Positions 8,273 to 34,702 of a stretch of DNA of 64,000 nucleotides are shown one piece after another; within the stretch, counting starts at the first letter, position 1; each line of letters begins with the position of its first letter. This DNA comes from Oceanispirochaeta sp. (GTDB taxonomy: Bacteria > Spirochaetota > Spirochaetia > DSM-2461): assembly GCA_963666275.2 (NCBI GenBank), contig CAXXOA010000001.1:1024001-1088000 (forward strand). Reading direction: 5' to 3'. The position numbers and the translations under genes were made by a program. The notes below the pieces were generated by a model. That model made no database searches. It was not told where the DNA came from and saw only the letters and a program-made list of their open reading frames with translations.

Positions 8273-8301
8273 ACTTTAAAGAATACTGGAGAAAATGTCA
8301 A
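8273..8301 (-). promoter_or_regulatory. Sigma70-like promoter of the tRNA-Tyr/Thr pair
   Basis: TTGACA (8301-8296), 17-bp spacer, TAAAGT (8278-8273). Confidence 0.65.
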
Positions 8302-8512
8302 TAAATGGCTGGAAGAACAGGGATTGGGCAATATCGAATATCTCTGGTGTTAAGCTCAGGGGTATATTTTATCAAATCAGGATTTTGTTTGCTCCATGGA
8401 GTGAACCGCCTCCGGTCACAGCTTCGCTGTTGCTCGTTTATACTTCCGACCCGTGGAGACCCGCATACTCATTTGGTGTGGGGGGGAGGGTAAAAGCCTC
8501 GGGCTACCCGAT
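8296..8512 (+). mobile_element. Degenerate 3' remnant of a group IIC intron (end of RT ORF, domains V-VI) with a 40-bp insert in domain V
   Basis: Translates NKWLEEQGL.NI.YLWC; ends GGCTACCCGAT like the intact copies. Confidence 0.88.
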
Positions 8513-10440: not shown

Positions 10441-10514
10441 TGCTTCCGACCCGTGCGGACCCGCATGCTCATTTGGTGTGGGGGCTGGAGCTTAAAAGCC
10501 TCGGGCTACCCGAT
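10441..10514 (+). mobile_element. Short group IIC intron 3' remnant (part of DV, plus DVI)
   Basis: CCGTGCGGACCCGCATGC..TGGTGTGGGGGCTGGAG..GGCTACCCGAT, followed by TTACGCAGA (R'' half of the TA cassette). Confidence 0.88.
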
Positions 10515-10532: not shown

Positions 10533-10808
10533 TTATTTATATGCTTCATCATGAGACCCAATGCTTATGGGAATTATAGTATCATCTTGTATCAGGAACT
10601 CAACTGTAATTCGGTATGAAATATTAATTGATATGCTATATAACTCTGATAAATTACCTTTTAATTGATGTAAGCGTAGAGATGGGTGATTGGGGTTTAT
10701 TTCCATTAGCTGCAATGCCTTAGAATACTGTTTTTTTATCTCTGGGTGTTTTTTTAAGAATTTTGCAGCTTTTTTTTCGTAACTATGTGTAAATATAATT
10801 TTAGGCAT
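10533..10808 (-). CDS. RelE/ParE-superfamily toxin (cassette 10)
   Basis: HPSLRLHQLKG..SISINISYRI..IGSHDE; overlaps the antitoxin gene. Confidence 0.88.
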   Translation of the reverse strand: MPKIIFTHSYEKKAAKFLKKHPEIKKQYSKALQLMEINPNHPSLRLHQLKGNLSELYSISINISYRITVEFLIQDDTIIPISIGSHDEAYK

Positions 10809-11058
10809 CAGTTATTCTTTCTATATGGTCTTCTATACTACCGGTATAATATTTTCCTTCTTGTATATCTTTCTTAGCTTCAACCAATGCTGCTTCAAGT
10901 TCACATTCTCTTAAGCGGTTGTATTCATCCATTGAAAGAACAACATATTTACTTTTACCTCGGACAGTTATGACTGCTTCATTCTCCTCTGAGATGACTT
11001 GATCCAGAACAGATACACCTTTAACTTTCAAATCATTGGCTGTTATACTATTAAACAT
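10801..11058 (-). CDS. Phd/YefM-family antitoxin (cassette 10)
   Basis: ITANDLK..VITVRGKSKYVVLSMDEY. Confidence 0.88.
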   Translation of the reverse strand: MFNSITANDLKVKGVSVLDQVISEENEAVITVRGKSKYVVLSMDEYNRLRECELEAALVEAKKDIQEGKYYTGSIEDHIERITDA

Positions 11059-11254: not shown

Positions 11255-11365
11255 GTGTAACATTCTTTTCATTTGCAGACCGTAAACCTGGCGTGAAACT
11301 TGCCTGCGTAGCAGAAAAGCAGGTTTCATGACAGTAGGGCTGTCAATTGCAAAAGCAAGTTAAAT
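11255..11365 (-). other. attC site, intron-free (111 bp)
   Basis: On +: GTGTAAC...imperfect hairpin...GTTAAAT; the R'' matches the GTTAAATAG start of the ATPase cassette at 12672. Confidence 0.85.
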
Positions 11366-12665: not shown

Positions 12666-12836
12666 ATTTAACACCCAAATATGATGCGAAGCGGCCTGAC
12701 CGAAGGGCAGGTATAGGCGCTTTTCTTGCTCCTTTATTCTAAACACCAGTTCGTTATTTGAGAAGAACAATTACTTTATCGAAGCTATTTCTGCAAGAAA
12801 TGTGATCTATAGCTTCGACTGCATCATTTGTTATCC
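12666..12836 (-). other. Long attC site, intron-free, apparent 4-nt loss next to R''
   Basis: ATTTAAC...GTTATCC; close homologue of the attC at 32548. Confidence 0.8.
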
Positions 12837-13853: not shown

Positions 13854-14004
13854 GGATAACGTCCGGTTCTGTGGAATGCCGTTAAATGGCGCTTTTCTTG
13901 CTTTACTATGTTAACCAGCTTTTTCATAGCTAAAAATGCTTACCGAATTAATAATAAACCCAAAGCAAGAAATGTGACATAGGCATTTCCATAGCAACCG
14001 TTTG
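13854..14004 (-). other. attC site interrupted by intron A (rest of R'' at 15915-15920)
   Basis: GGATAAC...hairpin...TTTG | TTATGT. Confidence 0.85.
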
Positions 14005-15914
14005 GTACGCCTGACATGGCAATAAACTTATGAGTTGAAAGTCCACTACAGCTACCCACGTATAGTAAACATGCTATACCAACTGTTAGCCGACGGCAAG
14101 GGCAATTCCGTGAGGAATTGTCTGGAGGAAGCCTGAGTGCAAAACCGGGAGCCCATGTATAAGAATGTGATATGGAATGCGAGTCACGCAGCATTCCACC
14201 CCCCAGTTCCGGAGGCTGGTCGCAAACAAGTTTGCTGCTCGCCCATGCAGCCTAGGGCGAGTCAGCCAATGATGACGATGCCCCGTGGGTGAGGGATAGG
14301 GTAAATCACAGGGTTGTCCGGCCCTGGTCGTAAACTTCGCTTGCTGCTCGCCCATGCAACCGGGGCATAGTAGCCAACGCCCGGAGTAATGTCCGGTTCA
14401 TGGTGAAGGCCTGAACATTTCACAAGGAGGAGCCTTATGGTTCTCAAAGGAACAATTTCAGTTTATGCCGGAATCACTTTTGGCGGACCATGGAGAAACA
14501 AGCCTTGAACGAATCTATGATGGATTTGATTTTATCCTCTGAAAATATGCACAAAGCCTGGAAACAGGTCAAACGCAATGGAGGTAGCCCTGGAATCGAC
14601 GGTATCACTGTCGAGAAGTTTCCAGGATATCTGAAAACCAGATGGCCTAGAATCAAACGAGCTTTGCTCAACGGGTACTATGTACCTTCTCCGGTGCTGA
14701 GGGTAGAAATCCCGAAGAAATCCGGAGGCTGGTCGCAAACAAGTTTGCTGCTCGCCCATGCAACCGGGGGAAAACGGATGCTGGGAATCCCGACAGTTCT
14801 AGACAGGGTTATCCAGCAGGCTATTTCACAGGTTCTGAATCCCATATTTGATCCGGATTTCTCGGAGCATAGCTATGGATTCAGACCGGGAAGATCGGCT
14901 CACGGAGCAGTGAAACAGGTAAATCAACATGTCAAATCCGGGTATAGATACGCCGTGGATCTGGACTTGGAAAAGTTCTTTGATACAGTTAATCATGATA
15001 TCCTGATGCATTTTGTGGCTGTAAAAGTCTGGGACAAATCTGTCCTCAGACTCATCGGCCGTTACCTGAGAGCCGGTATTCAGTTGGACAATGGAAAAGT
15101 GATTCCTACAGACATCGGCACACCCCAAGGCGGGCCCTTATCACCTCTGCTTTCCAATATCCTCCTTGATCGGTTGGATATGGAACTGGAGAGAAGAAAT
15201 GTGAGGTTCGCACGGTATGCAGATGACACTATCCTTTTAACGAAGAGATTGTGTGATGCTAGGAAGATCCTACAGGAAGTTTCAATATTTCTGGTAAGGA
15301 AATTGAAATTGGTAGTGAATCAGGAGAAAACGAAAGTTGCAAAGATAAGGGAGTGCAGTTTCCTGGGATTCACATTCAAGGGTAAGAAGATTCGCTGGAC
15401 AGAGTCGTCCTTTGAGGATTTTCGGTATCATCTGAAATATCTGACAAGGCGTTCCTGGGGTGTTTCCATGGAATACAGAATCGGGAAACTCAATGAGTAT
15501 ATCCGGGGCTGGATGAACTACTATGGGATCTCCCAATATTACAGCCCTATACAGAATCTTGATGACTGGCTCCTTAGGAGGATTCGCATGTGCTACTGGA
15601 AACAGTGGCGATATCCCAGAACGAAAGTCAGGAAACTGATGGAACTGGGAATTCCGAAAGATTTTGCCATTATCACCGGTGCCAGTAGTAAATCCTATTG
15701 GCATCTCTCCAAGTCTTACGCTACCAATGCAGCTATGTCCAATAAATGGCTGGAAGAGCAGGGATTGGTCAATATCAAATATCTGTGGTGTAAAGCCCAG
15801 GGATATATCTGATCAAATCAGGATTTCGTTTGCTCCATGGAGTGAACCGCCCCGTGCGGACCCGCATGCGGGGTGGTGTGGGGGCTGGAGGTTAAAAGCC
15901 TCCGGCTACCCGAT
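14005..15914 (+). mobile_element. Group IIC-attC intron, species 1, copy A (internally deleted ribozyme)
   Basis: GTACG 5' end, CCCGAT 3' end; about 230 bp present in the other copies is replaced near 14322-14365. Confidence 0.92.
14490..15812 (+). CDS. ltrA: Group II intron RT/maturase without endonuclease domain, with 14-aa insert
   Basis: GTPQGGPLSP, RYADD, domain X. Confidence 0.95.
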   Translation: MEKQALNESMMDLILSSENMHKAWKQVKRNGGSPGIDGITVEKFPGYLKTRWPRIKRALLNGYYVPSPVLRVEIPKKSGGWSQTSLLLAHATGGKRMLGIPTVLDRVIQQAISQVLNPIFDPDFSEHSYGFRPGRSAHGAVKQVNQHVKSGYRYAVDLDLEKFFDTVNHDILMHFVAVKVWDKSVLRLIGRYLRAGIQLDNGKVIPTDIGTPQGGPLSPLLSNILLDRLDMELERRNVRFARYADDTILLTKRLCDARKILQEVSIFLVRKLKLVVNQEKTKVAKIRECSFLGFTFKGKKIRWTESSFEDFRYHLKYLTRRSWGVSMEYRIGKLNEYIRGWMNYYGISQYYSPIQNLDDWLLRRIRMCYWKQWRYPRTKVRKLMELGIPKDFAIITGASSKSYWHLSKSYATNAAMSNKWLEEQGLVNIKYLWCKAQGYI

Positions 15915-15922
15915 TTATGTGG

Positions 15923-16786
15923 TCAATTATTTATTACCAAGTATTCAGTCAAACATAATTGATCATTCTTTTTTCCAATAACAAATAAGATATTTCTTTC
16001 AAAGTCATAATCTATAGAATATATTCTAGTTTCTTCTGAATTTATATTTTCCATTTTTGTTATACCTTCATCAATATTATAAAGCTTGAAATTGTTAATG
16101 CAAGAAGTTAGAAAACGATTATTACCAATATAAACAGCAGATGTTATAAGTTCTTTTTCATCTATTTTATACTTGTCTTCATTATTAGTTATATAATATT
16201 CATATCCTTTATACGGAATATTAATCCCATAAATGAAGTCTTTTGAATTTAATTTATGATCAAAAACCATTAATTCATTTTCTGTAATAACTGTCTCACA
16301 AAAGCCTGAAATTAATGAGTATTTTTGGATCTTTACTTTTTTTTCTCCAGGAAAATATCTCTCAATAAAAAAAGATGTATCAGTATCCCAGAAAATATTC
16401 CTAATGATTAAGAGTTCATCTTTACTTGTAATTAAAGCATCCAAATTTGAATCCAATCTATTCTCTTCAACTAAAGTAATTCCAGAGAACCAACCCGAAT
16501 GCCCTGAAATAAACAATAATGAATTATCCATGAAACTCATGCTAAAGATTGATAGTTCATCAGGAATAAGTGAGCTTATATTATTCCTTTCACCATTTTC
16601 ATCATAAAAATAGAGAGAATGCCCCATCGAAATATAAAAACCATTATTAGTTCCTGAAACAAGTAGTGGTAATCCTTCTCTATTGAAATAGAATTCATCA
16701 ATTTTCTGTAGTTCTAATGAATATAAATTTGTAAATATCAATATGACTAATAAATATGTAATTGCTTTTTTCATCATTAATTCCAT
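15923..16786 (-). CDS. Secreted protein, putative immunity partner (cassette 7)
   Basis: Signal-peptide-like MMKKAITYLLVILIFTNLYS; start overlaps the upstream stop (TAATG). Confidence 0.6.
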   Translation of the reverse strand: MELMMKKAITYLLVILIFTNLYSLELQKIDEFYFNREGLPLLVSGTNNGFYISMGHSLYFYDENGERNNISSLIPDELSIFSMSFMDNSLLFISGHSGWFSGITLVEENRLDSNLDALITSKDELLIIRNIFWDTDTSFFIERYFPGEKKVKIQKYSLISGFCETVITENELMVFDHKLNSKDFIYGINIPYKGYEYYITNNEDKYKIDEKELITSAVYIGNNRFLTSCINNFKLYNIDEGITKMENINSEETRIYSIDYDFERNILFVIGKKNDQLCLTEYLVINN

Positions 16787-17844
16787 TAAAAGTAAAACGT
16801 TGAAGGATTGATTAATTTTCCATTGATATGCGTTCTAAAATCTAAATGTGGATTGGTAGACATGCCAGTTGAGCCGATAGAACCAATTATCTGACCTTGT
16901 TCAACCCATTGCCCATTTTCAACTGAAACTGTTGATAGATGAGAATATTGTGATGAAACTTTAAAGAAGGGAACATCTTTATCATTAGGAAATTGCTTTG
17001 CATAATCAATAAATAAACTGTTACCATAGGCATCAGATAGAGAACTATCAAATCTTATATAACCAGAATGAGCCGCGTATACTGGATCACCAAGAGGACA
17101 ATCATAATCAATCCCACCATGCCATCGGTTGATTTCTTCTCCTTGATAAAACAGCTTACAAAACCCATAATTTTCCGTTACAATTGGATCATCAACAGGA
17201 ACAATAAAACCTAATTCTAACAAACAAGATGGTCTTGTAATTTCAACATAGTGCCTAACAGGGTCACTTGCCTCCAATTGCTCAAAAGAATTATCATACA
17301 TGTCTTTATAATGATCGCTTACATTCTCGTAACAAGCTTTTTTATTCTCCTTTGGAGCAGGAGCGGGTGGAGTTTCTTCCTTCGGAGCAGATTTCATTAT
17401 CGGCTTATCATCATCTTCTCCATCTAGCCATAAATCTTCATAGATTAATTCTATTCTTTCTACTGCGATACCATTTGCTCTAAAATCTAATGTGGGGCCA
17501 ATCCAACGGCAGGGTAAAGCACGAAAGAAATTCCAACGTTTTACTTCTTCACCGCTTTGATCCATTAAAATAACTGAACCGCTTCTCCTTTCTACTGGCT
17601 TGTCGGAATGAATTACATCATAGTACCAACGGTATAAATCATCACAAGTAGAAATACCTTTTTCGAGAATCAAATTTGGGAAACGAGTTCTTCCCTCAAA
17701 TCGATGAATTCCATACCCGCCTTCTTCCACTTCATAAACATATTTTTCTGATTCGAGACCTTCACAACGAGAAAATGTTGTTGTTATGACTCCATCCAGT
17801 TCTAATGCAAAACAATGTGGTAAATAAGAATCTGATCTATTCAT
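16786..17844 (-). CDS. T4 gp19-like tail tube domain fused to M23 peptidase (cassette 7)
   Basis: N-term F..CEGL..E..EGG..NLILEKG..WNFFRALP.RW.GP; Pro-rich linker; C-term HGGID, YSHL, GSTG.STNPHLDF. Confidence 0.85.
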   Translation of the reverse strand: MNRSDSYLPHCFALELDGVITTTFSRCEGLESEKYVYEVEEGGYGIHRFEGRTRFPNLILEKGISTCDDLYRWYYDVIHSDKPVERRSGSVILMDQSGEEVKRWNFFRALPCRWIGPTLDFRANGIAVERIELIYEDLWLDGEDDDKPIMKSAPKEETPPAPAPKENKKACYENVSDHYKDMYDNSFEQLEASDPVRHYVEITRPSCLLELGFIVPVDDPIVTENYGFCKLFYQGEEINRWHGGIDYDCPLGDPVYAAHSGYIRFDSSLSDAYGNSLFIDYAKQFPNDKDVPFFKVSSQYSHLSTVSVENGQWVEQGQIIGSIGSTGMSTNPHLDFRTHINGKLINPSTFYF

Positions 17845-18128
17845 TACTAATCTCCCCAAATAATGATTTCTTGTTTTACATTTAGTAATTTACGTCATTA
17901 ATATATATTGATTCTTTTAATGATTCTTGTCACTAGATAATATGAATTGTTTTTCTTACAAATAACCCATTTTCTTCGTAGCATAATCCTCCACCGGAGG
18001 TTTCTTCCCAATTTTTCTCCCACTGGGGTTTCTTTCTATTTCATACTTATTCTTCCATCCGGCGGAAGAAATCTAATTCTATCCGTATAGTGTAACATAC
18101 AAAGGTGTATAATGAACAGCCGTAACCC

Positions 18129-18233
18129 ACATAACATCGATTTAACTAGCAGACAGATAGCTGGCGGATTCTGTGCCTGCAAAGCAGATAAGCACAGAAT
18201 GTGACCAGCCTGGCTGACTAGTTCAAATCCTTG
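18129..18233 (-). other. attC site interrupted by intron B
   Basis: ACATAAC...hairpin...CTTG | TTAGAT (20265). Confidence 0.88.
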
Positions 18234-20264
18234 GTACGCCTGACATGGCAATAAACTTATGAGGTGAAAGTCCTCTACAGCTACCCACGTATAGTAAACA
18301 TGCTATACCAACTGTTAGCCGACGGCAAGGGCAATTCCGTGAGGAATTGTCTGGAGGAAGCCTGAGTGCAAAACCGGGAGCCCATGTACAAGAATGTGAT
18401 AGAAGGCCCAGTTCTGGAGGTGAGTCAGCCAATGATGACGATGCCCCGTGGGTGAGGGATAGGGTAAATCACAGGGTTGTCCGGGGAATGTTTATTGTCT
18501 TATTCGGGGAGATCTGTCTGCAAGGCGGTAACACCGGTTTGACCGTGAGAATCCGGAGGATACCGGGGTAACAAATCCAGGCCTATCAGGGGATGACACT
18601 CTGATAAGGAGCCGTTTATACGGAACACAAAGAAGTCGTCACAGCGATTCAAACCGGATGATACAGCGTCAGCAGGAGTAATTCAACTGATAAGCAGACA
18701 GAAGTCAGCAGAAGGCATAGTAGCCAACGCCCGGAGTAATGTCCGGTTCATGGTGAAGGTCTGAACATTTCACAAGGAGGAGCCTTATGGTTCTCAAAGG
18801 AACAATTTCAGTTTATGCCGGAATCACTTTTGGCGGACCATGGAGAAACCAGCCTTGAACGAATCTATGATGGATTTGATTTTATCCTCTGAAAATATGC
18901 ACAAAGCCTGGAAACAGGTCAAACGCAATGGAGGTAGCCCTGGAATCGACGGTATCACTGTCGAGAAGTTTCCAGGATATCTGAAAACCAGATGGCCTAG
19001 AATCAAACGAGCTTTGCTCAACGGGTACTATGTACCTTCTCCGGTGCTGAGGGTAGAAATCCCGAAGAAATCCGGAGGCTGGTCGCAAACAAGTTTGCTG
19101 CTCGCCCATGCAACCGGGGGAAAACGGATGCTGGGAATCCCGACAGTTCTAGACAGGGTTATCCAGCAGGCTATTTCACAGGTTCTGAATCCCATATTTG
19201 ATCCGGATTTCTCGGAGCATAGCTATGGATTCAGACCGGGAAGATCGGCTCACGGAGCAGTGAAACAGGTAAACCAACATGTCAAATCCGGGTATAGATA
19301 CGCCGTGGATCTGGACTTGGAAAAGTTCTTTGATACAGTTAATCATGATATCCTGATGCATTTTGTGGCTGTAAAAGTCCGGGACAAATCTGTCCTCAGA
19401 CTCATCGGCCGTTACCTGAGAGCCGGTATTCAGTTGGACAATGGAAAAGTGATTCCTACAGACATCGGCACACCCCAAGGCGGGCCCTTATCACCTCTGC
19501 TTTCCAATATCCTCCTTGATCGGTTGGATATGGAACTGGAGAGAAGAAATGTGAGGTTCGCACGGTATGCAGATGACACTATCCTTTTAACGAAGAGATT
19601 GTGTGATGCTAGGAAGATCCTACAGGAAGTTTCAATATTTCTGGTAAGGAAATTGAAATTGGTAGTGAATCAGGAGAAAACGAAAGTTGCAAAGATAAGG
19701 GAGTGCAGTTTCCTGGGATTCACATTCAAGGGTAAGAAGATTCGCTGGACAGAGTCGTCCTTTGAGGATTTTCGGTATCATCTGAAATATCTGACAAGGC
19801 GTTCCTGGGGTGTTTCCATGGAATACAGAATCGGGAAACTCAATGAGTATATCCGGGGCTGGATGAACTACTATGGGATCTCCCAATATTACAGCCCTCT
19901 ACAGAACCTTGATGACTGGCTCCGTAGGAGGATTCGCATGTGCTACTGGAAACAGTGGCGATATCCCAGAACGAAAGTCAGGAAACTGATGGAACTGGGA
20001 ATTCCGAAAGATTTTGCCATTATCACCGGTGCCAGTAGTAAATCCTATTGGCATCTCTCCAAGTCTTACGCTACCAATGCAGCTATGTCCAATAAATGGC
20101 TGGAAGAGCAGGGATTGGTCAATATCAAATATCTGTGGTGTAAAGCCCAGGGATATATCTGATCAAATCAGGATTTCGTTTGCTCCATGGAGTGAACCGC
20201 CCCGTGCGGACCCGCATGCGGGGTGGTGTGGGGGCTGGAGGTTAAAAGCCTCCGGCTACCCGAT
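18234..20264 (+). mobile_element. Group IIC-attC intron, species 1, copy B (2031 bp)
   Basis: GTACG...CCCGAT; DV GAACCGCCCCGTGCGGACCCGCATGCGGGGTGGT. Confidence 0.95.
18840..20162 (+). CDS. ltrA: Group II intron RT/maturase with 14-aa insert
   Basis: YADD; near-identical to the other species 1 copies. Confidence 0.95.
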   Translation: MEKPALNESMMDLILSSENMHKAWKQVKRNGGSPGIDGITVEKFPGYLKTRWPRIKRALLNGYYVPSPVLRVEIPKKSGGWSQTSLLLAHATGGKRMLGIPTVLDRVIQQAISQVLNPIFDPDFSEHSYGFRPGRSAHGAVKQVNQHVKSGYRYAVDLDLEKFFDTVNHDILMHFVAVKVRDKSVLRLIGRYLRAGIQLDNGKVIPTDIGTPQGGPLSPLLSNILLDRLDMELERRNVRFARYADDTILLTKRLCDARKILQEVSIFLVRKLKLVVNQEKTKVAKIRECSFLGFTFKGKKIRWTESSFEDFRYHLKYLTRRSWGVSMEYRIGKLNEYIRGWMNYYGISQYYSPLQNLDDWLRRRIRMCYWKQWRYPRTKVRKLMELGIPKDFAIITGASSKSYWHLSKSYATNAAMSNKWLEEQGLVNIKYLWCKAQGYI

Positions 20265-20273
20265 TTAGATTGT

Positions 20274-21299
20274 CTATATATATAAATCAATTCCTCCAAA
20301 TTCTTTTACAAAATCAATAATGGTTTTAATATTTTGTAATGATCTATATTTCTCAAGAAAATCTATTTGTCTTTTATCAAAGTAAATTAACAAAATACAA
20401 GCATGACTACGTGTTTCCTCATGAATTGTTTCATCTGCGATAATTTCTCTTAAATATTCAATTTTATTACTATTACAATTAATAATAGCTTCAACAGACT
20501 GTCCAATACTGCCTCTTTGGATCCCAATCTCTGGATTAATAAATTCTAACAGTTTAATTATTGTTTTTTTGGGGATATTTGCTAATAAAATCTTTGCATA
20601 ATTTCGTGTTTCGTCAGTAAGTTGTGTTCCTGTATAGAAGATATCTGGATGTCCTGGAACATGAGCAATATAATAAATTAGTTGACTTGAAATGTCATAG
20701 ATCGTTGAAGAAGTTATATAATCAATAAAAATATCCCATATAACTTTTTCATTTTTATAATTGCTAAATAGAATCGATGAACCGAGCGAGTGTTCTTGGA
20801 TGATATCGGATTTGAAGAGTTCTATACTTTCCTCTATAGTCAATTCTGGTATCTTTCGAATCATTTGTGGTAGAAATAGATTTGAAAAACTTTTCTTTTC
20901 AATAATATTTGTTCTATTTAGAAATATTTTGATTGAAGTATCATTAGGAAAATCATGCAAATATTTTTTAATGTCAATCCAATATGCTTTATCATTTTGA
21001 TCATCATATACTATTCCATGTACAGGCAAGGAATAATTCGACCAGTAATCACGATGATCTTCAATTTGAAAAAAAGCATAATCACGTTTTTTAGAAAAAT
21101 ATGATTTTCCTGATTTGATCTGATATGCAATAGAAGTATTAGTTGGGGAACCATTTAAAAAGAATTCAATTATACAATCTATTCCAAAATCATTTTCTTG
21201 TTCAATTTTATGGAAAATAGATCCAGATTCTTCCACTAGTGACTTAATAAAGTTTATTCCACGTTTTGCTGTTATTGATGATGGTTTCAATTTACCCAA
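20274..21299 (-). CDS. DUF4365-like (PD-(D/E)XK) protein (cassette 6)
   Basis: ENDFGIDCIIE...QIKSG N-terminal motif. Confidence 0.78.
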   Translation of the reverse strand: MGKLKPSSITAKRGINFIKSLVEESGSIFHKIEQENDFGIDCIIEFFLNGSPTNTSIAYQIKSGKSYFSKKRDYAFFQIEDHRDYWSNYSLPVHGIVYDDQNDKAYWIDIKKYLHDFPNDTSIKIFLNRTNIIEKKSFSNLFLPQMIRKIPELTIEESIELFKSDIIQEHSLGSSILFSNYKNEKVIWDIFIDYITSSTIYDISSQLIYYIAHVPGHPDIFYTGTQLTDETRNYAKILLANIPKKTIIKLLEFINPEIGIQRGSIGQSVEAIINCNSNKIEYLREIIADETIHEETRSHACILLIYFDKRQIDFLEKYRSLQNIKTIIDFVKEFGGIDLYI

Positions 21300-21327
21300 A
21301 ATTTACCCTTTCCGTTTCTTGCAATAA

Positions 21328-22032
21328 TTATTTCTTTTTCCCTTTATAATAAAATCCTAATATTTTGTAGAAATGATCTCTATAATCATCATTCTCAGGA
21401 ATATTATAATTTTTTTTATCGAATTTCGCTGCATAAAAAACTTTCAATTCCCAGCATACATTAGCTGTGTTTAACGATTTTAAATGACCTTTATATTTAT
21501 TGAAAACTTTTTTTATCTTAATCTTATTGTCCATAATATTTGTGATATCAACAACAAATGGTAAATAAGCTTCTTTAAAACAATTTTCACCTGTTCTATC
21601 CTGAAAATCGAAAAGTTCAGTCATTCTTTTTAAGTCTTTCAAAATTTCTTTTTTGGAAGGGGAATCTCTTTTCACTTCAATACAATATCTCGAATGATTA
21701 ATTCCTTGAATATTTTCATAGATGCAAATATCCATATTCCCATTTCTTTTTGTATTCTTAATTTTTGAAATAATCATCTTTGCAAAACCAAATTCATCTC
21801 CTTTATCCTCTGTTGATAACAGCGGTACACAACTTCTTGCGAATTTTTTTGTTGATTCTTCAACTTTTATAATCCATGGGTCTATTGGACAATCTTTGAT
21901 TTCAGCGACCGATTTAGCTATATTTACAGTCAATAAATACTCAGGGAAATCATAATTATTTATTTCACCAGTAAATAACTCTAAATCACTGTATGTGTTT
22001 TTTATTCCCTTTTTAATTTTGTCTTCAATCAT
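21328..22032 (-). CDS. Putative PD-(D/E)XK nuclease-fold protein (cassette 6)
   Basis: PEYLLT..DICIYE..CIEVKR..DLKRM. Confidence 0.6.
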   Translation of the reverse strand: MIEDKIKKGIKNTYSDLELFTGEINNYDFPEYLLTVNIAKSVAEIKDCPIDPWIIKVEESTKKFARSCVPLLSTEDKGDEFGFAKMIISKIKNTKRNGNMDICIYENIQGINHSRYCIEVKRDSPSKKEILKDLKRMTELFDFQDRTGENCFKEAYLPFVVDITNIMDNKIKIKKVFNKYKGHLKSLNTANVCWELKVFYAAKFDKKNYNIPENDDYRDHFYKILGFYYKGKKK

Positions 22033-22048
22033 TTTTATACCTTTATCA

Positions 22049-22144
22049 ATCTAACTATCTTTTAAGTAGCAGATCGTAAACTGGCGAGATCGTTGCCAAA
22101 GCAAGGATCATGACAGTAGAACTGACTACTTCAAAAGCTCGTTA
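22049..22144 (-). other. attC site interrupted by intron C
   Basis: ATCTAAC...hairpin...GTTA | TAT (24119). Confidence 0.85.
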
Positions 22145-24118
22145 GTACGCCCGGCATGGGTATCAACTTATGGGGTGAAAGTCCCCTGCAGGTTCTCACA
22201 GATAGTTAATGCTATCCAAACTGCTAGCCAGAGGCAAGGGCATCTTCGTGAGGAGTTGTCTGAAGGAAGCCCGACGGCAAAACCGGGAACCGATGAACAA
22301 AAATGTGATATAAGGCCTAGTTTCAGAGACGAGTTAGCTAACGATAACGATGTCCGGTGAGAGTGAAACAGGGTAAATCACACGGTTGTCCGGGGAAAGC
22401 TGATACCCTTATCCGGGGAGGCCTGTTTGCACGGCGATTTTGATGAAGACCTTTCGGAATAATCGGCAGAAGGATGCCGATCAAAGCAAATCCCGGCTGT
22501 TCACAAGGTGGCAATTGTGAAACGGAGCCATCATCCGATGGAACACAAAATGATGTCACAGAAAGTTCTTCATGGAAAGCATTAGTGGTAGCAATTTCAC
22601 TGATTAGCAGACAGGAGTCAGCAGAAGGCATAGTAGCCAACGCCCGGAGTAATGCCCGGTTCACGGCGAAGGCCTGAACATTTCACAAGGAGGAGCCTTA
22701 TGGTTCTCAGGAACAAAACTATTTCTGGCGGATCATGGAGAAACCAGCCTTGAACAACACCTTGATGGATCTGATTCTTACATCGGAAAACATGCACAAA
22801 GCCTGGAAGCAGGTGAAGAGCAACGGAGGAAGTCCCGGAGTTGACGGCATAACCGTCGAAGAATTCCCGGCATACCTTCGGAATCGATGGGAAAGGGTCA
22901 GGCGAGCTTTGCTTTTTGGGTACTACGTGCCCTCTCCGGTTAAACGGGTCGAAATCCCCAAGAAATCCGGAGGAAAACGAATACTGGGTATCCCGACAGT
23001 ACTCGACCGGGTTATCCAGCAAGCCATTACACAGGTTCTGAGTCCGATCTTCGATCCCGATTTTTCGGATTGCAGTTTTGGATTCAGGCCGGGAAAATCG
23101 GCTCATGGAGCAGTGAAGAAGGTTCAGAGCTATGTTGTATCAGGATATGGCTATGCTGTGGATCTGGACTTGGAAAAGTTCTTTGATACAGTCAATCATG
23201 ATATTCTGATGCATCTGGTCGGCCGGAAAGTCCGGGACAAGAAAGTCCTCAGGTTGATCGGTCGGTACCTTAGAGCCGGAATTCTGGATAAAGAAGGAAA
23301 TAACCTTCCAACTGTTGTTGGGACTCCTCAAGGAGGCCCTCTTTCTCCGCTTCTTTCAAATATCCTTTTGGATCAGTTTGATAAGGAGCTGGAAAGACGT
23401 AAGTTATTGTTTTCCCGATATGCTGATGATGCCATAATTTTGGTCCGAAATCAGCATGAAGGATCTCGACTTCTATCAGAGGTCTCCAGCTTCCTGAGCA
23501 GGAAACTGAAACTCATTGTCAATGAGGAAAAGAGTAAGGTTGCACCGATAAGAGATTGTTCATTCCTGGGTTTTACCTTCATCGGGGGAAAGATCCGCTG
23601 GACAGAAAAGGCGTACCAGGATTTCCGTTACAACATCAGACGTTTGACTGGACGATCATGGGGTGTTTCCATGAAATACCGCTATAGCAAACTGAATCAA
23701 TACTTGAGAGGCTGGATGAATTACTATGGTATTTCCGAATACTACAGGCCGATTCCGGGACTTGAAGAATGGCTCAGAAGGAGAATCCGTATGTGCTACT
23801 GGAAACAGTGGCGCAGATGTCGAACAAAAGTCAACAACTTGATCAAACTAGGGATTCCGGTGCGTGCTGCTATACCTGCCGGTACATGCAGCCACTCTTA
23901 CTGGAAGATGTCGAAGACTTACACAACGAATGCAGGTCTATCCAATAAATGGCTGGAAGAGCAGGGACTAGTCAGTATTAAAGCCCTTTGGTGCAAAGCC
24001 CAAGGGTATACTTGACCAGATTGAGGAAGCTGTTTGCTTCATGAAATGAACCGCCCTGTGCGGATCCGCTTGCAGGGTGGTGTGGGGACTGGGGGAGAGA
24101 AACCCCCGGTTACCCGAT
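22145..24118 (+). mobile_element. Group IIC-attC intron, species 2 (1974 bp)
   Basis: GTACGCCCGGCATGG 5' end, TACCCGAT 3' end; sequence clearly diverged from species 1. Confidence 0.93.
22735..24015 (+). CDS. ltrA: Group II intron RT/maturase, species 2
   Basis: GTPQGGPLSP, RYADD. Confidence 0.95.
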   Translation: MEKPALNNTLMDLILTSENMHKAWKQVKSNGGSPGVDGITVEEFPAYLRNRWERVRRALLFGYYVPSPVKRVEIPKKSGGKRILGIPTVLDRVIQQAITQVLSPIFDPDFSDCSFGFRPGKSAHGAVKKVQSYVVSGYGYAVDLDLEKFFDTVNHDILMHLVGRKVRDKKVLRLIGRYLRAGILDKEGNNLPTVVGTPQGGPLSPLLSNILLDQFDKELERRKLLFSRYADDAIILVRNQHEGSRLLSEVSSFLSRKLKLIVNEEKSKVAPIRDCSFLGFTFIGGKIRWTEKAYQDFRYNIRRLTGRSWGVSMKYRYSKLNQYLRGWMNYYGISEYYRPIPGLEEWLRRRIRMCYWKQWRRCRTKVNNLIKLGIPVRAAIPAGTCSHSYWKMSKTYTTNAGLSNKWLEEQGLVSIKALWCKAQGYT

Positions 24119-24122
24119 TATT

Positions 24123-24310
24123 TCATATAGTTTTTAGCCTAAATCTAATTGATGAAGGGCTAAAACCCATTTTTTCATAAAAACCAATTGCATTACTGTT
24201 GTTTGCAAATACTGATAGACGTATATCAGTCAACCCTTTTTCTCTTATCCATTCTAATCCATGCATGAATAAGCTTTTCCCAATTCCTCGTTTACGTATT
24301 CCTTCGGTTA
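24123..24310 (-). pseudogene. 3' half of a GNAT acetyltransferase cassette gene (cassette 5), truncated by IS3
   Basis: Manual translation: RKRGIGKSLF..IRLSVFANNSNAIGFYEKMGF..KTI*. Confidence 0.85.
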
Positions 24311-24340
24311 TGAACCACCCCGAGAATCCCGGAGACAGAT

Positions 24341-25246
24341 TTACTTGAGTCCGGCTGTTACTGCCAGACTAATTTCCTGTTCATAATACATCATTTCAAA
24401 CTCTTGTGGAGAAATATATCCCAGAGGTTCCATGATCCGTTTGTTATTATACCAATCCACCCAGTCTAAAGTAGCCAGTTCAACCTGTTCAATCGAGCGC
24501 CAGGGACCATCTTTGTGAATGACTTCTGCCTTGTATAGACCGTTTATTGTCTCTGCCAGAGCATTGTCATAAGAGTCACCTTTACTCCCAACTGATGGAT
24601 CAATTCCTGCTTCAATAAGTCGTTCTGTATAGGAAATAGCCAGATATTGAGAACCACGATCACTATGATGGATCAGCTTTTCTGTTACCTGTCTTGCCCA
24701 CAATGCCTGATTGAGTGCATCCAAAGTAAAATCCGTTTTCATTGACGTTGATGCCCGCCACCCGACAATCATTCTTGAAAATACATCAATTATGAAAGCA
24801 ACATAAACAAATCCCCTCCAAGTGGAAACATAGGTGAAGTCAGCCACCCACAGCTCGTTTGGCCTGGAAGCAGTGAAATCCCGGTTTACAAGATCATCAG
24901 GCCTGTTATCTTTCGTCGGAATCGTTGTCCTGACTTTCTTACCACGAATTACACCACGAAGCCCCATGGCACGCATTAAACGCTCTACAGTGCATCTGGC
25001 GACGGGGATTCCTTCTTTATTCATGGCCTGCCAGACTTTTTTAGCTCCATATACACATCTATTCTCAAACCAGACCCGTTTGATTTCATCTTTCAGGTGG
25101 TTATCCCTTTTTACTCTTGGAGGCTCTCTGTCTGGATCTGATTGCCGTGATTTCATTTCGTAATAGGTTGATGGAGCTATCTGAATATTCTTACAGAGAG
25201 GCTCGACTCCATGATTTTCCCTATTCTTATCAATGAAATTGACCAT
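24341..25246 (-). CDS. IS3 transposase OrfB (DDE)
   Basis: WVADFTYV, HHSDRGSQY, DNALAE. Confidence 0.95.
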   Translation of the reverse strand: MVNFIDKNRENHGVEPLCKNIQIAPSTYYEMKSRQSDPDREPPRVKRDNHLKDEIKRVWFENRCVYGAKKVWQAMNKEGIPVARCTVERLMRAMGLRGVIRGKKVRTTIPTKDNRPDDLVNRDFTASRPNELWVADFTYVSTWRGFVYVAFIIDVFSRMIVGWRASTSMKTDFTLDALNQALWARQVTEKLIHHSDRGSQYLAISYTERLIEAGIDPSVGSKGDSYDNALAETINGLYKAEVIHKDGPWRSIEQVELATLDWVDWYNNKRIMEPLGYISPQEFEMMYYEQEISLAVTAGLK

Positions 25247-25566
25247 TATTTCTTTCGGCGGTCGAGCTCCGCCTGGGCGAAATATGCTGATGCCTTACGC
25301 AATATCTCATTGGCTTCTCTTAGCTCACGAACTTCTCTTTCAAGTTCCTTTATTCTTGCCCGTTCTTCACTGGAGACGCCTTCCTTGATACCACGGTCTA
25401 TCTCGGTTTGTTTTACCCATTTTCTCAGAGACTCCGGAGTACACCCGGTTTTTGAGGCTATTGAAATTATTGCTGCCCACCGTGATTCATAGTCTTTTTC
25501 ATGATCAAAGACCATCCTGACTGCCCGCTCTTTAACTTCTTGAGCATACCTGATTCTTTTTCCCAT
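25246..25566 (-). CDS. IS3 transposase OrfA (HTH, leucine zipper)
   Basis: [27 protein letters not shown]. Confidence 0.93.
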
Positions 25567-25616
25567 AACACAATCCTCTCATATAATTGTGTCTCCGGGA
25601 AACCCGGGGTGGTTCA

Positions 25617-26318
25617 CGGTATGCAGATGACACTATCCTTTTAACGAAGAGATTGTGTGATGCTAGGAAGATCCTAAAGGAAGTTTCAATATTTCTGGTA
25701 AGGAAATTGAAATTGGTAGTGAATCAGGGAAAAACGAAAGTTGCAAAGATAACGGAATGCAGCTTCCTGGGGTTCACATTCAAGGGTAAGAAGATTCGCT
25801 GGACTGAGTCGTCTTTTGAGGATTTTCGGTATCAACTGAAATATCTGACAAGGCGTTCCTGGGGTGTTTCCATGGAATACAGAATCGGGAAACTCAATGA
25901 GTATATCCGGGGCTGGATGAACTACTATGGGATCTCCCAATATTACAGCCCTCTACAGAACCTTGATGACTGGCTCCGTAGGAGGATTCGCATGTGCTAC
26001 TGGAAACAGTGGCGATATCCCAGAACGAAAGTCAGGAAACTGATGGAACTGGGAATTCCGAAAGATTTTGCCATTATCACCGGTGCCAGTAGTAAATCCT
26101 ATTGGCATCTCTCCAAGTCTTACGCTACCAATGCAGCTATGTCCAATAAATGGCTGGAAGAGCAGGGATTGGTCAATATCAAATATCTGTGGTGTAAAGC
26201 CCAGGGATATATCTGATCAAATCAGGATTTCGTTTGCTCCATGGAGTGAACCGCCCCGTGCGGACCCGCATGCGGGGTGGTGTGGGGGCTGGAGGTTAAA
26301 AGCCTCCGGCTACCCGAT
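25617..26318 (+). mobile_element. 5'-truncated species 1 intron (copy D'), starting at the RYADD codons
   Basis: Carries the same variants as the 3' part of copy D; ends CCCGAT before TTATATGT. Confidence 0.92.
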
Positions 26319-28016: not shown

Positions 28017-30005
28017 GTACGCCTGACATGGCAATAAACTTATGAGGTGAAAGTCCTCTACAGCTACCCACGTATAGTAAACATGCTATACCAACTGTTA
28101 GCCGACGGCAAGGGCAATTCCGTGAGGAATTGTCTGGAGGAAGCCTGAGTGCAAAACCGGGAGCCCATGTACAAGAATGTGATAGAAGGCCCAGTTCTGG
28201 AGGTGAGTCAGCCAATGATGACGATGCCCCGTGGGTGAGGGATAGGGTAAATCACAGGGTTGTCCGGGGAATGTTTATTGTCTTATTCGGGGAGATCTGT
28301 CTGCAAGGCGGTAACACCGGTTTGACCGTGAGAATCCGGAGGATACCGGGGTAACAAATCCAGGCCTATCAGGGGATGACACTCTGATAAGGAGCCGTTT
28401 ATACGGAACACAAAGAAGTCGTCACAGCGATTCAAACCGGATGATACAGCGTCAGCAGGAGTAATTCTACTGATAAGCAGACAGAAGTCAGCAGAAGGCA
28501 TAGTAGCCAACGCCCGGAGTAATGTCCGGTTCATGGTGAAGGTCTGAACATTTCACAAGGAGGAGCCTTATGGTTCTCAAAGGAACAATTTCAGTTTATG
28601 CCGGAATCACTTTTGGCGGACCATGGAGAAACCAGCCTTGAACGAATCTATGATGGATTTGATTTTATCCTCTGAAAATATGCACAAAGCCTGGAAACAG
28701 GTCAAACGCAATGGAGGTAGCCCTGGAATCGACGGTATCACTGTCGAGAAGTTTCCAGGATATCTGAAAACCAGATGGCCTAGAATCAAACGAGCTTTGC
28801 TCAACGGGTACTATGTACCTTCTCCGGTGCTGAGGGTAGAAATCCCGAAGAAATCCGGAGGAAAACGGATGCTGGGAATCCCGACAGTTCTAGACAGGGT
28901 TATCCAGCAGGCTATTTCACAGGTTCTGAATCCCATATTTGATCCGGATTTCTCGGAGCATAGCTATGGATTCAGACCGGGAAGATCGGCTCACGGAGCA
29001 GTGAAACAGGTAAATCAACATGTCAAATCCGGGTATAGATACGCCGTGGATCTGGACTTGGAAAAGTTCTTTGATACAGTTAATCATGATATCCTGATGC
29101 ATTTTGTGGCTGTAAAAGTCTGGGACAAATCTGTCCTCAGACTCATCGGCCGTTACCTGAGAGCCGGTATTCAGTTGGACAATGGAAAAGTGATTCCTAC
29201 AGCAATCGGCACACCCCAAGGCGGGCCTTTATCACCTTTGCTTTCCAATATCCTCCTTGATCGGTTGGATATGGAACTGGAAAGAAGAAATGTACGGTTT
29301 GCACGGTATGCAGATGACACTATCCTTTTAACGAAGAGATTGTGTGATGCTAGGAAGATCCTAAAGGAAGTTTCAATATTTCTGGTAAGGAAATTGAAAT
29401 TGGTAGTGAATCAGGGAAAAACGAAAGTTGCAAAGATAACGGAATGCAGCTTCCTGGGGTTCACATTCAAGGGTAAGAAGATTCGCTGGACTGAGTCGTC
29501 TTTTGAGGATTTTCGGTATCAACTGAAATATCTGACAAGGCGTTCCTGGGGTGTTTCCATGGAATACAGAATCGGGAAACTCAATGAGTATATCCGGGGC
29601 TGGATGAACTACTATGGGATCTCCCAATATTACAGCCCTCTACAGAACCTTGATGACTGGCTCCGTAGGAGGATTCGCATGTGCTACTGGAAACAGTGGC
29701 GATATCCCAGAACGAAAGTCAGGAAACTGATGGAACTGGGAATTCCGAAAGATTTTGCCATTATCACCGGTGCCAGTAGTAAATCCTATTGGCATCTCTC
29801 CAAGTCTTACGCTACCAATGCAGCTATGTCCAATAAATGGCTGGAAGAGCAGGGATTGGTCAATATCAAATATCTGTGGTGTAAAGCCCAGGGATATATC
29901 TGATCAAATCAGGATTTCGTTTGCTCCATGGAGTGAACCGCCCCGTGCGGACCCGCATGCGGGGTGGTGTGGGGGCTGGAGGTTAAAAGCCTCCGGCTAC
30001 CCGAT
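28017..30005 (+). mobile_element. Group IIC-attC intron, species 1, copy D (1989 bp)
   Basis: GTACG...CCCGAT; no RT insert. Confidence 0.95.
28623..29903 (+). CDS. ltrA: Group II intron RT/maturase (426 aa)
   Basis: YADD. Confidence 0.95.
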   Translation: MEKPALNESMMDLILSSENMHKAWKQVKRNGGSPGIDGITVEKFPGYLKTRWPRIKRALLNGYYVPSPVLRVEIPKKSGGKRMLGIPTVLDRVIQQAISQVLNPIFDPDFSEHSYGFRPGRSAHGAVKQVNQHVKSGYRYAVDLDLEKFFDTVNHDILMHFVAVKVWDKSVLRLIGRYLRAGIQLDNGKVIPTAIGTPQGGPLSPLLSNILLDRLDMELERRNVRFARYADDTILLTKRLCDARKILKEVSIFLVRKLKLVVNQGKTKVAKITECSFLGFTFKGKKIRWTESSFEDFRYQLKYLTRRSWGVSMEYRIGKLNEYIRGWMNYYGISQYYSPLQNLDDWLRRRIRMCYWKQWRYPRTKVRKLMELGIPKDFAIITGASSKSYWHLSKSYATNAAMSNKWLEEQGLVNIKYLWCKAQGYI

Positions 30006-32547: not shown

Positions 32548-32713
32548 ACATAACACCAAAATATGCTGCGAAGCGACCTGGCTTGCCAGGTATAGGCGCT
32601 TTTCTTGCACCTTTATTCTAAACAGCAATTCCTTTTTTGAGAAGGACAATTCCTTTGACGAAGCCGTTTCTGCAAGAAATGTGATCTATAGCTTCGACTG
32701 CATCATTTTTTTG
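32548..32713 (-). other. Long attC site (~172 bp reconstituted) interrupted by intron E
   Basis: ACATAAC...branched hairpin...TTTG | TTATGC (34703). Confidence 0.85.
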
Positions 32714-34702
32714 GTACGCCCGACATGGCAATAAACTTATGAGGTGAAAGTCCTCTACAGCTACCCACGTATAGTAAACATGCTATACCAACTGTTAGCC
32801 GACGGCAAGGGCAATTCCGTGAGGAATTGTCTGGAGGAAGCCTGAGTGCAAAACCGGGAGCCCATGTACAAGAATGTGATAGAAGGCCCAGTTCTGGAGG
32901 TGAGTCAGCCAATGATGACGATGCCCCGTGGGTGAGGGATAGGGTAAATCACAGGGTTGTCCGGGGAATGTTTATTGTCTTATTCGGGGAGATCTGTCTG
33001 CAAGGCGGTAACGGCGGTTTGACCGTGAGAATCCGGAGGATACCGGGGTAATAAATCCAAGCCTATCAGGGGATGACACTCTGATAAGGAGCCGTTTATA
33101 CGGAACACAAAGAAGTCGTCACAGCGATTCAAACCGGATGATACAGCGTCAGCAGGAGTAATTCTACTGATAAGCAGACAGAAGTCAGCAGAAGGCATAG
33201 TAGCCAACGCCCGGAGTAATGTCCGGTTCATGGTGAAGGTCTGAACATTTCACAAGGAGGAGCCTTATGGTTCTCAAAGGAACAATTTCAGTTTATGCCG
33301 GAATCACTTTTGGCGGACCATGGAGAAACCAGCCTTGAACGAATCTATGATGGATTTGATTTTATCCTCTGAAAATATGCACAAAGCCTGGAAACAGGTC
33401 AAACGCAATGGAGGTAGCCCTGGAATCGACGGTATCACTGTCGAGAAGTTTCCAGGATATCTGAAAACCAGATGGCCTAGAATCAAACGAGCTTTGCTCA
33501 ACGGGTACTATGTACCTTCTCCGGTGCTGAGGGTAGAAATCCCGAAGAAATCCGGAGGAAAACGGATGCTGGGAATCCCGACAGTTCTAGACAGGGTTAT
33601 CCAGCAGGCTATTTCACAGGTTCTGAATCCCATATTTGATCCGGATTTCTCGGAGCATAGCTATGGATTCAGACCGGGAAGATCGGCTCACGGAGCGGTG
33701 AAACAGGTAAATCAACATGTCAAATCCGGGTATAGATACGCCGTGGATCTGGACTTGGAAAAGTTCTTTGATACAGTTAATCATGATATCCTGATGCATT
33801 TTGTGGCTGTAAAAGTCTGGGACAAATCTGTCCTCAGACTCATCGGCCGTTACCTGAGAGCCGGTATTCAGTTGGACAATGGAAAAGTGATTCCTACAGA
33901 CATCGGCACACCCCAAGGCGGGCCCTTATCACCTCTGCTTTCCAATATCCTCCTTGATCGGTTGGATATGGAACTGGAGAGAAGAAATGTGAGGTTCGCA
34001 CGGTATGCAGATGACACTATCCTTTTAACGAAGAGATTGTGTGATGCTAGGAAGATCCTACAGGAAGTTTCAATATTTCTGGTAAGGAAATTGAAATTGG
34101 TAGTGAATCAGGAGAAAACGAAAGTTGCAAAGATAAGGGAGTGCAGTTTCCTGGGATTCACATTCAAGGGTAAGAAGATTCGCTGGACAGAGTCGTCCTT
34201 TGAGGATTTTCGGTATCATCTGAAATATCTGACAAGGCGTTCCTGGGGTGTTTCCATGGAATACAGAATCGGGAAACTCAATGAGTATATCCGGGGCTGG
34301 ATGAACTACTATGGGATCTCCCAATATTACAGCCCTTTACAGAACCTTGATGACTGGCTCCGTAGGAGGATTCGCATGTGTTACTGGAAACAGTGGCGAT
34401 ATCCCAGAACGAAAGTCAGGAAACTGATGGAACTGGGGATTCCGAAAGATTTTGCCATTATCACCGGTGCCAGTAGTAAATCCTATTGGCATCTCTCCAA
34501 GTCTTACGCTACCAATGCAGCTATGTCCAATAAATGGCTGGAAGAGCAGGGATTGGTCAATATCAAATATCTGTGGTGTAAAGCCCAGGGATATATCTGA
34601 TCAAATCAGGATTTCGTTTGCTCCATGGAGTGAACCGCCCCGTGCGGACCCGCATGCGGGGTGGTGTGGGGGCTGGAGGTTAAAAGCCTCCGGCTACCCG
34701 AT
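32714..34702 (+). mobile_element. Group IIC-attC intron, species 1, copy E (1989 bp)
   Basis: GTACG...CCCGAT. Confidence 0.95.
33320..34600 (+). CDS. ltrA: Group II intron RT/maturase (426 aa)
   Basis: YADD. Confidence 0.95.
   Translation: MEKPALNESMMDLILSSENMHKAWKQVKRNGGSPGIDGITVEKFPGYLKTRWPRIKRALLNGYYVPSPVLRVEIPKKSGGKRMLGIPTVLDRVIQQAISQVLNPIFDPDFSEHSYGFRPGRSAHGAVKQVNQHVKSGYRYAVDLDLEKFFDTVNHDILMHFVAVKVWDKSVLRLIGRYLRAGIQLDNGKVIPTDIGTPQGGPLSPLLSNILLDRLDMELERRNVRFARYADDTILLTKRLCDARKILQEVSIFLVRKLKLVVNQEKTKVAKIRECSFLGFTFKGKKIRWTESSFEDFRYHLKYLTRRSWGVSMEYRIGKLNEYIRGWMNYYGISQYYSPLQNLDDWLRRRIRMCYWKQWRYPRTKVRKLMELGIPKDFAIITGASSKSYWHLSKSYATNAAMSNKWLEEQGLVNIKYLWCKAQGYI

Follow-up and report, generated by a model that had tools for sequence, protein, structure and literature searches.

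Group IIC introns are defined by a short pairing of 3-4 bp that joins the intron's exon-binding site 1 (EBS1) to its partner in the 5' exon, intron-binding site 1 (IBS1), by an EBS3-IBS3 contact and by an upstream DNA stem-loop (PMC7923331). The IIC-attC introns, which target the attC sites of integron gene cassettes, insert in the majority of described cases at TTGT|T (PMC7923331; the bar marks the insertion bond). Named examples are S.ma.I2, E.c.I7, Kl.pn.I1, Sh.ba.I2, G.s.I1 and N.e.I1, and an outward promoter, Pout, lies in domain I or II of these introns (PMC3001079). The window analysed here, a stretch of 64,000 nucleotides from an Oceanispirochaeta sp. genome (G000, with contigs C1, C2 and C3), holds an integron cassette array with two related introns of this kind, called species 1 and species 2. 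Neither uses the published bond: species 1 is found at G|TT and species 2 at GTTA|T, and each register matches the bases of its own candidate EBS1.

Like the described IIC-attC introns, species 1 and 2 sit in the R'' box of the attC bottom strand, are oriented opposite to cassette transcription, measure about 2 kb and encode a reverse transcriptase (RT) with a maturase only; their first bases, GTACGCC, are those found in the Sh.ba.I2 primer, and their RTs fall in the same clade as those of introns on class 1 integron plasmids, which are 50-52% identical to species 1. They differ in having CAAU or UAAC for ACAA as EBS1, and G|TT or GTTA|T for TTGT|T as insertion site. With the terminator-targeting O.i. 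and E.r. introns they share a four-base EBS1 after a delta C, an EBS3 A facing T, an upstream DNA stem-loop and EBS1-IBS1 covariation (PMC3669008, PMC10190682), and the E.r. structure has a 4-bp EBS1 after the delta C, an A as EBS3 and a spacer after the stem (PMC10190682). In the O.i. and E.r. introns, however, the stem is a terminator. Species 1 and 2 use attC as the stem and insert within its R box, which gives the register consequences for a recombination site. Described exceptions to the attC rule concern strand or orientation: a IIC intron of Enterobacter cloacae lies in the top strand of attC, and a Shewanella algae intron has the orientation of the cassettes (PMC7923331, PMC9229058). 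Species 1 and 2 stay on the bottom strand and differ in base position. The TTGT|T consensus given in the initial annotation is borne out by PMC7923331, which words it as a majority, so that exceptions may already be in print. Neither G|TT nor GTTA|T is given in the available text of the literature searched (PMC7923331, PMC4424553, PMC8876359, PMC8643678, PMC3669008, PMC3053210, PMC3001079, PMC8946536, PMC5371416, PMC10190682, PMC5027507, PMC2727003 and PMC9229058), and primary target tables or supplements may list other registers.

The features of a group IIC ribozyme are present in both introns, which begin with GTACGCC and end with ACCCGAT and combine a short EBS1-IBS1 pairing, an EBS3-IBS3 contact and an upstream DNA stem-loop. 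Rfam RF02001 matches five species 1 copies and species 2, and RF01998 matches five of these six. Domain V reads a CGC triad, which we take to be the class C consensus. The three RT open reading frames (ORFs) scanned match only the Pfam families RVT_1 and GIIM, that is, an RT and a maturase without endonuclease. Judged by RT tree, strand and target, species 1 and 2 are IIC-attC introns; they are 73% identical to each other in both DNA and RT.

In the window, species 1 is represented on the plus strand by five copies with a 5' end, at 18234-20264 (junction CTTG/TTAG; RT ORF 18840-20162, with a 42-bp in-frame insert), 14005-15914 (TTTG/TTAT; ribozyme part altered by deletions and small inserts), 28017-30005 (TTTG/TTAT, without insert, used as the reference copy), 32714-34702 (TTTG/TTAT) and 35529-37559 (AATG/TTAT, the one copy mismatched at -3), and by a 5'-truncated copy at 25615-26318 (plus strand, 3' exon TTAT) that abuts an IS3-family element with ORFs at 24341-25566 on the minus strand. 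The intron at 18234 splits an attC bottom strand into a 5' part at 18129-18233 (plus strand) and the rest of R'', TTAGAT, at 20265-20270, and the joined exons fold with the AAC of R' paired to the GTT of R''. The initial annotation had read the insertion as G|TT from the 5' exons TTTG, CTTG, TTTG, TTTG and AATG, and this stands: the 3' exons start with TTA, and genome-wide all ten copies with a 5' end lie at G|TT, nine after TTG and one after ATG. Another seven 3' ends lack a 5' end, and TT follows in six. The attC arm hit at 32714 also exists empty on contig C3, 95.5% identical over 67 bases spanning the junction, which fixes the species 1 junction. The presence of near-identical copies at 10 different attC sites would imply recent mobility.

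Species 2 occupies 22145-24118 (plus strand; junction GTTA/TAT; RT ORF 22735-24015) and is present as a single copy in the genome, inserted in the attC bottom strand at 22049-22144 (plus strand), which runs from the R' sequence ATCTAAC to GTTA. An empty homologous attC site in a genome of the same genus (locus L275, genome G006) reads CTCGTTATAT, which matches the joined exons exactly and shows no duplication, and thereby confirms the junction; the junction proposed earlier is thus correct, and the general statement that species 2 inserts at GTTA|T rests on one copy in this genome. Contigs of sequencing run X1 cross the junctions at 18234, 22145 and 24118 with 0 differences, although this run is probably the source sample itself and the agreement therefore not independent; among the 15 joints listed of 46 there was no contig joint that skips either intron exactly. 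Most attC sites hit by either intron contain TTGTT, yet TTGT|T is unused (G|TT in 10/10 and GTTA|T in 1/1), so the earlier statement that both registers depart from the typical target holds. Among proteins, closer relatives of species 2 are found (P0002 at 90% and P0005 at 80% identity). Since GTTAT is offered by 20 of the 24 anchored attC sites and a single copy was found, species 2 is probably a rare or recent resident. In run X5, from another organism, four contigs cover 22141-24174 with 19-26 differences each; the first begins four bases ahead of the intron, which hints at a third GTTA junction, left out of the counts here. A joint in X5 from 24115 to 22145 has the same form as head-to-tail tandem introns, in which a 3' end is followed directly by a new 5' end, as seen at L355:132-2094 in a genome of the G745 family.

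The candidate EBS1 loops are as first reported, AGTCAGC-CAAT-GATGAC in species 1 (CAAT at 18430-18433) and AGTTAGC-TAAC-GATAAC in species 2 (TAAC at 22339-22342). In species 1, CAAU belongs to the loop, 8 nt long, that caps the domain Id3 hairpin (plus strand; stem 18424-18427/18436-18439) with the delta C before it, and UAAC lies in the homologous loop of species 2 (plus strand; stem 22333-22336/22345-22348). EBS3 is an A at 18466 in species 1, pairing with T at +1, and an A at 22375 in species 2, both on the plus strand. As had been proposed, CAAT pairs at 3 of 4 positions with the exons of all ten species 1 copies, and TAAC at 4 of 4 with GTTA; only one species 1 copy in ten forms the fourth pair, and recognition by species 1 would thus effectively consist of 3 bp plus EBS3. 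Modelling of the secondary structure supports the 8-base hairpin loop in both species, but not an unusual stability of it: folding of the Id3 region was no more stable than that of shuffled sequences (z from -1.27 to +1.37), so that the fold alone is no evidence for EBS1. The identification of the loop as EBS1 is nevertheless upheld by alignment, covariation and compensatory changes. Introns of class 1 integrons, which insert at TTGT|T, read ACAA at the same gap-free columns (L032, L033, L288 and L289), and ACAA is also visible in L286 and L287. Several other IIC-attC introns (L034:897, L052:1883, L349, L351 and L046) carry palindromic inserts of 25-45 bases inside the EBS1 loop, which should disable targeting.

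Covariation was assessed with a hairpin-anchored loop call on 91 intron 5' ends, taken from loci of genomes, metagenomes, viruses and plasmids; 13 were dropped for lack of a clean loop call or exon, leaving 78 introns in 24 lineages (85% identity over domain I). Watson-Crick pairing of EBS1 positions 1 to 4 with exon bases -1 to -4 is seen in 72, 77, 64 and 43 of the 78 introns, respectively. With one intron per lineage, 80.8 of 96 pairs are formed, against 43.3±5.2 in 10,000 shuffles (maximum 62). When the exon window is slid, 1.15-1.57 of 4 pairs are formed compared with 3.48 in register, and when the intron window is slid, 0.64-1.76 compared with 3.28. A C directly precedes EBS1 in 78 of 78 introns, partly owing to the scoring of the loop call. 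Compensatory combinations of loop and exon, which lie on separate branches, include ACCA/TGGT (L042 and L309), ACTA/TAGT (L307), CACA/TGTG (L102), CATT/AATG (L190 and L191), CCTC/GAGG (L200) and TAAG/CTTA (L169). Of the 45 introns for which both ends are known, 40 have A/T as the pair between EBS3 and +1 and one has C/G, with four not called.

In these same 45 introns the first base of EBS1 goes together with the register: C-first loops are found at G|TT in 21 cases, A-first loops at GT|T in 16, a G-first loop at GT|T in one and T-first loops at NTTA|T in two, with five other cases. The first base would thus predict the register, A giving GT|T, C giving G|TT and U giving NTTA|T. A scan of metagenomes (100 stretches, with a pattern that barred A-first loops) yielded six both-ended introns at G|TT (L155, L164, L176, L178, L191 and L207), and G|TT, as far as these loci go, is not special to this genome, being found also in other genomes of the spirochaete group and in unrelated metagenome lineages. 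The same scan gave L169, a sister of species 2 with a TAAG loop at a CTTA|T site; its hairpin (minus strand, 2649-2566) is solitary and lies between genes on the intron's strand. An unselected survey by RT protein covered the groups around records titled Geobacterales (201 genomes), Desulfobacterium (401) and Parashewanella (151), with 62 loci (L305-L366). In it, 49 of 50 both-ended introns lie at GT|T and one is a tandem copy, neither G|TT nor GTTA|T occurring among the 50; the groups in which the family was described therefore use the published site. No further T-first attC intron was found in 38 genomes of the family searched by pattern, 401 of the phylum searched by protein and 401 of the class searched by DNA, and 19 loci on viral contigs (41-49% identity) include none close to species 2. 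The nearest named introns come from records titled Spirochaetaceae, Spirochaetia and Oceanispirochaeta, with 79-84% RT identity.

The placement of both RTs in a phylogeny, which the initial annotation had called for, points the same way. In the main RT tree (25 rows out of an earlier tree of 51 rows, S.ma.I2 being absent), both species belong to one clade with support 100/100 inside an attC clade with support 100/100, among introns inserted at GT|T. This attC clade includes the class 1 integron plasmid introns L032 and L033, and rows of the terminator type stand apart (support 97 in the 51-row tree). Species 2 and L169 are sisters with support 100/99. A single origin for all attC rows whose loops begin with C or T is rejected (p-AU 0.003), for a group named after the first tree had been seen, and the first base of EBS1 needs four changes on the tree. 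The simplest reading would take ACAA with GT|T as ancestral.

Taken together, loop identity, covariation, compensatory changes and tree position support the proposal that specificity was reprogrammed by a change of EBS1. In this explanation, which we hold at a probability of roughly 85%, both species are IIC-attC retroelements without endonuclease, and the pairing of EBS1 and EBS3 with DNA sets the insertion bond on the folded attC bottom strand. The ribonucleoprotein would find the folded strand by its shape, most likely on the single-stranded template of lagging-strand synthesis at the replication fork, and the exact phosphodiester would then be set by pairing, with EBS1 reading the 3-4 bases before the site and the A of EBS3 demanding a T after it. 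The attC bottom strand ends in TTGTTAT, and the three loops can be seen as windows sliding along its complement, ACAA giving the published GT|T, CAAN giving G|TT one base earlier and UAAN giving GTTA|T two bases later. A single transition separates CAA from UAA and would in principle suffice to shift the site by three bases. The sites used, G|TT, GT|T and GTTA|T, are the positions of TTGTTAT with T next, and GTT|A was never seen, being closed because EBS3 A requires T at +1. We infer that the change of EBS1 caused the shift without a necessary change of the protein.

The joined exons fold as attC hairpins, with the AAC of R' on the GTT of R'' and extrahelical bases on the 3' arm. This pairing comes at no energy cost in 9 of the 10 G000 targets folded, the target at C3 190780 also folding in this way, and at C3 187455 it forms only when forced. 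L box and GTT are equally far apart at species 1 and species 2 sites; the spacer that follows the stem hence differs by three bases, and the stem is no fixed ruler. Occupancy of attC sites was taken from a profile search (a fold-based genome-wide scan gave 385 matches, mostly false, and was dropped), with the lagging-strand template deduced from GC skew and with two unanchored TTG sites, one on the lagging template and one on the other strand, added by eye. On the deduced lagging template species 1 occupies 9 of 11 TTG sites and 1 of 8 other sites (Fisher p 0.005); on the other strand it occupies 0 of 6 TTG sites. Folding of attC on the lagging template has been described (PMC8946536, PMC5371416). 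The species 2 site has TCG before TT, a poor match for species 1. A separate attC cluster on the minus strand of C1 (about 1,290,000-1,305,000), whose bottom strands lie on the deduced leading template, contains no intron copy, and every intron-bearing array has the opposite orientation to it.

Several points weigh against this explanation. With RTs that differ at 27% of sites, the two species could also owe their registers in part to the protein. Occupied sites served to build the attC profile; of the six leading-template sites, two are weak hits (E 0.25 and 0.58) and five belong to one array. The table of 45 introns holds many near-identical copies from G000 and G003, also among the 21 at G|TT; kinship likewise inflates the covariation counts and any shuffle test, and some introns pair poorly (L155 with 2 of 4, L198 and one L092 copy). 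A-first loops were left out by the metagenome pattern. The NTTA|T register is known from two introns only, species 2 and L169, and the target of the latter is an attC-like hairpin, with AAG/CTT replacing AAC/GTT, outside a visible array.

An alternative that we consider improbable is that protein and hairpin fix the distance of insertion and that EBS1 adapted later to the bases found there. It would fit the E.r. structure, in which the RT thumb and the DNA-binding domain grip the DNA stem and spacer (PMC10190682), as well as the only 73% identity of the two RTs and the constancy of the register within each RT clade. On the other hand, loop and exon change together within one domain I cluster (ACAA/TTGT in L031, CAAC/CTTG in L141 and CACA/CGTG in L136), attC sites with the wrong bases at -3 to -1 are skipped by species 1 at equal distance, and TTG|T is kept at empty matching sites and at non-attC insertions in G003.

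The integron integrase IntI cuts the R' AAC between A and C, as AA|C (PMC5027507, PMC2727003), and the observation that G|TT lies opposite this cut in the folded bottom strand holds as geometry in the folds. That G|TT is used through a link with IntI, for example by attack on an integrase-bound or nicked hairpin opposite AA|C, seems very unlikely, even though the two bonds face each other exactly and C-first loops arose more than once. The loci analysed gave no sign that the coincidence goes beyond geometry. G|TT is merely one of the three TTGTTAT positions with T next, species 1 copies are present also in C2 and C3 arrays, where no second intI was found, and a sister in G003 has a copy without an attC candidate (L015). 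Cleavage by IntI, moreover, yields not a primer but a 3' phosphotyrosine, which sits on the same strand in its other arm; this counts against such a link. It is scarcely credible, finally, that species 2 truly sits at GT|T with two extra bases, from a TA duplication or a 5' extension, since nothing has been removed from the empty L275 site, TAAC pairs 4 of 4 with GTTA but not with TCGT, and the sister L169 has TAAG with CTTA|T, against which stand only the TA flanking species 2 on both sides and the shifted splice sites known in other group II introns (PMC4424553).

The register would also have consequences for attC itself. After insertion of species 1, R'' becomes GGTACGC and the middle core pair is lost in 9 of 9 folded sites, at a cost of 0.5-4.6 kcal/mol; after insertion of species 2, R'' becomes GTTAGTA, which forms 5 bp with R' and folds 1.9 kcal/mol better. 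Insertion at GTTA|T would thus leave the AAC/GTT core pairing intact, while G|TT and GT|T would each break one pair. More tentatively, and with considerable doubt on our side, GTTA|T could be an attC-sparing strategy: insertion beyond the conserved GTT would keep the R box fully paired, and IntI could still excise and mobilise the cassette together with its intron. Cassettes of 1,500 bp or more can show reduced excision (PMC5371416).

The setting of these introns is a complete integron, with both intI and a cassette array bounded by attC sites. The intI gene at 39487-40710 (plus strand, 407 aa; Pfam Phage_integrase and Phage_int_SAM_4) is transcribed divergently from the array, which runs leftwards on the minus strand, and no other close copy of intI is present in the genome. 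Since the cassette genes are on the minus strand, the plus strand is the attC bottom strand; the introns, inserted in R'' opposite to the cassette genes, are all on this strand, which carries six group II introns with a 5' end by Rfam, five of species 1 and one of species 2. Two R'' boxes on the plus strand are empty, one at 11359-11365 in which CAAG precedes TT and gives no match to species 1, and one at 12830-12836 in which TTTG precedes TT, a species 1 match left unoccupied. Several attC sites of the array are 157-175 bases long (for example 13854-14004 and 32548-32713), beyond the range of 57-141 quoted in PMC5027507.

Other parts of the array are cassette genes and intron remnants. A Phd/YefM antitoxin and a RelE-like toxin form a pair at 10533-11058, near the distal array end, the toxin matches being below Pfam cut-offs. 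In the cassette gene at 16786-17859 an M23 peptidase is fused with a T4 gp19-like tail tube domain; a 97% similar copy is present in marine metagenome run X4. The cassette adjoining species 2 (24119-25617) is, as read from its translation, the 3' piece of an acetyltransferase-like ORF interrupted by the IS3-family element, which contains an ALIL pseudoknot and abuts the 5'-truncated species 1 copy. Remnants of intron 3' ends (domain V-VI) lie at 8295-8512 and 10446-10514, at cassette ends near the tRNA-proximal end of the array; they are followed by TTC and TTA, and their 5' parts and attC arms are gone. The 42-bp element of the 18234 copy (19077-19118) is in frame in the RT ORFs of five genome copies (440 instead of 426 aa), being present also in those at 14490 and 36135 and in C3 copies; a related form occurs in domain I of other copies, including the one at 14005, and two related units lie outside introns at C1:1664512-1664580. 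It looks like a small repeat invading CCGG-rich spots of the intron.

The principle of EBS1-IBS1 covariation is itself textbook knowledge. The registers form a natural retargeting series: two sister introns of one host are directed to separate bonds within the attC box, and in relatives each EBS1 position shows compensatory change, as does EBS3 in one case, which argues that base pairing, and not a protein ruler on the hairpin, fixes the site. A paper of 2021 states that IIC introns have never served for gene targeting (PMC7923331). The TTGT|T rule is widened, which matters for the annotation of intron ends and attC sites, and the register bears on the proposed role of IIC-attC introns in cassette formation. 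It is predicted to decide how much of the attC core survives, with a bearing on whether introns freeze cassettes or ride along with them. If GTTA|T does spare attC, introns at G|TT would by contrast harm the core, tend to immobilise their cassettes and abolish the site that species 2 needs. Introns living in one host would then be rivals for a box of six bases and would act on integron shuffling in opposite ways, a single base of EBS1 being the switch.

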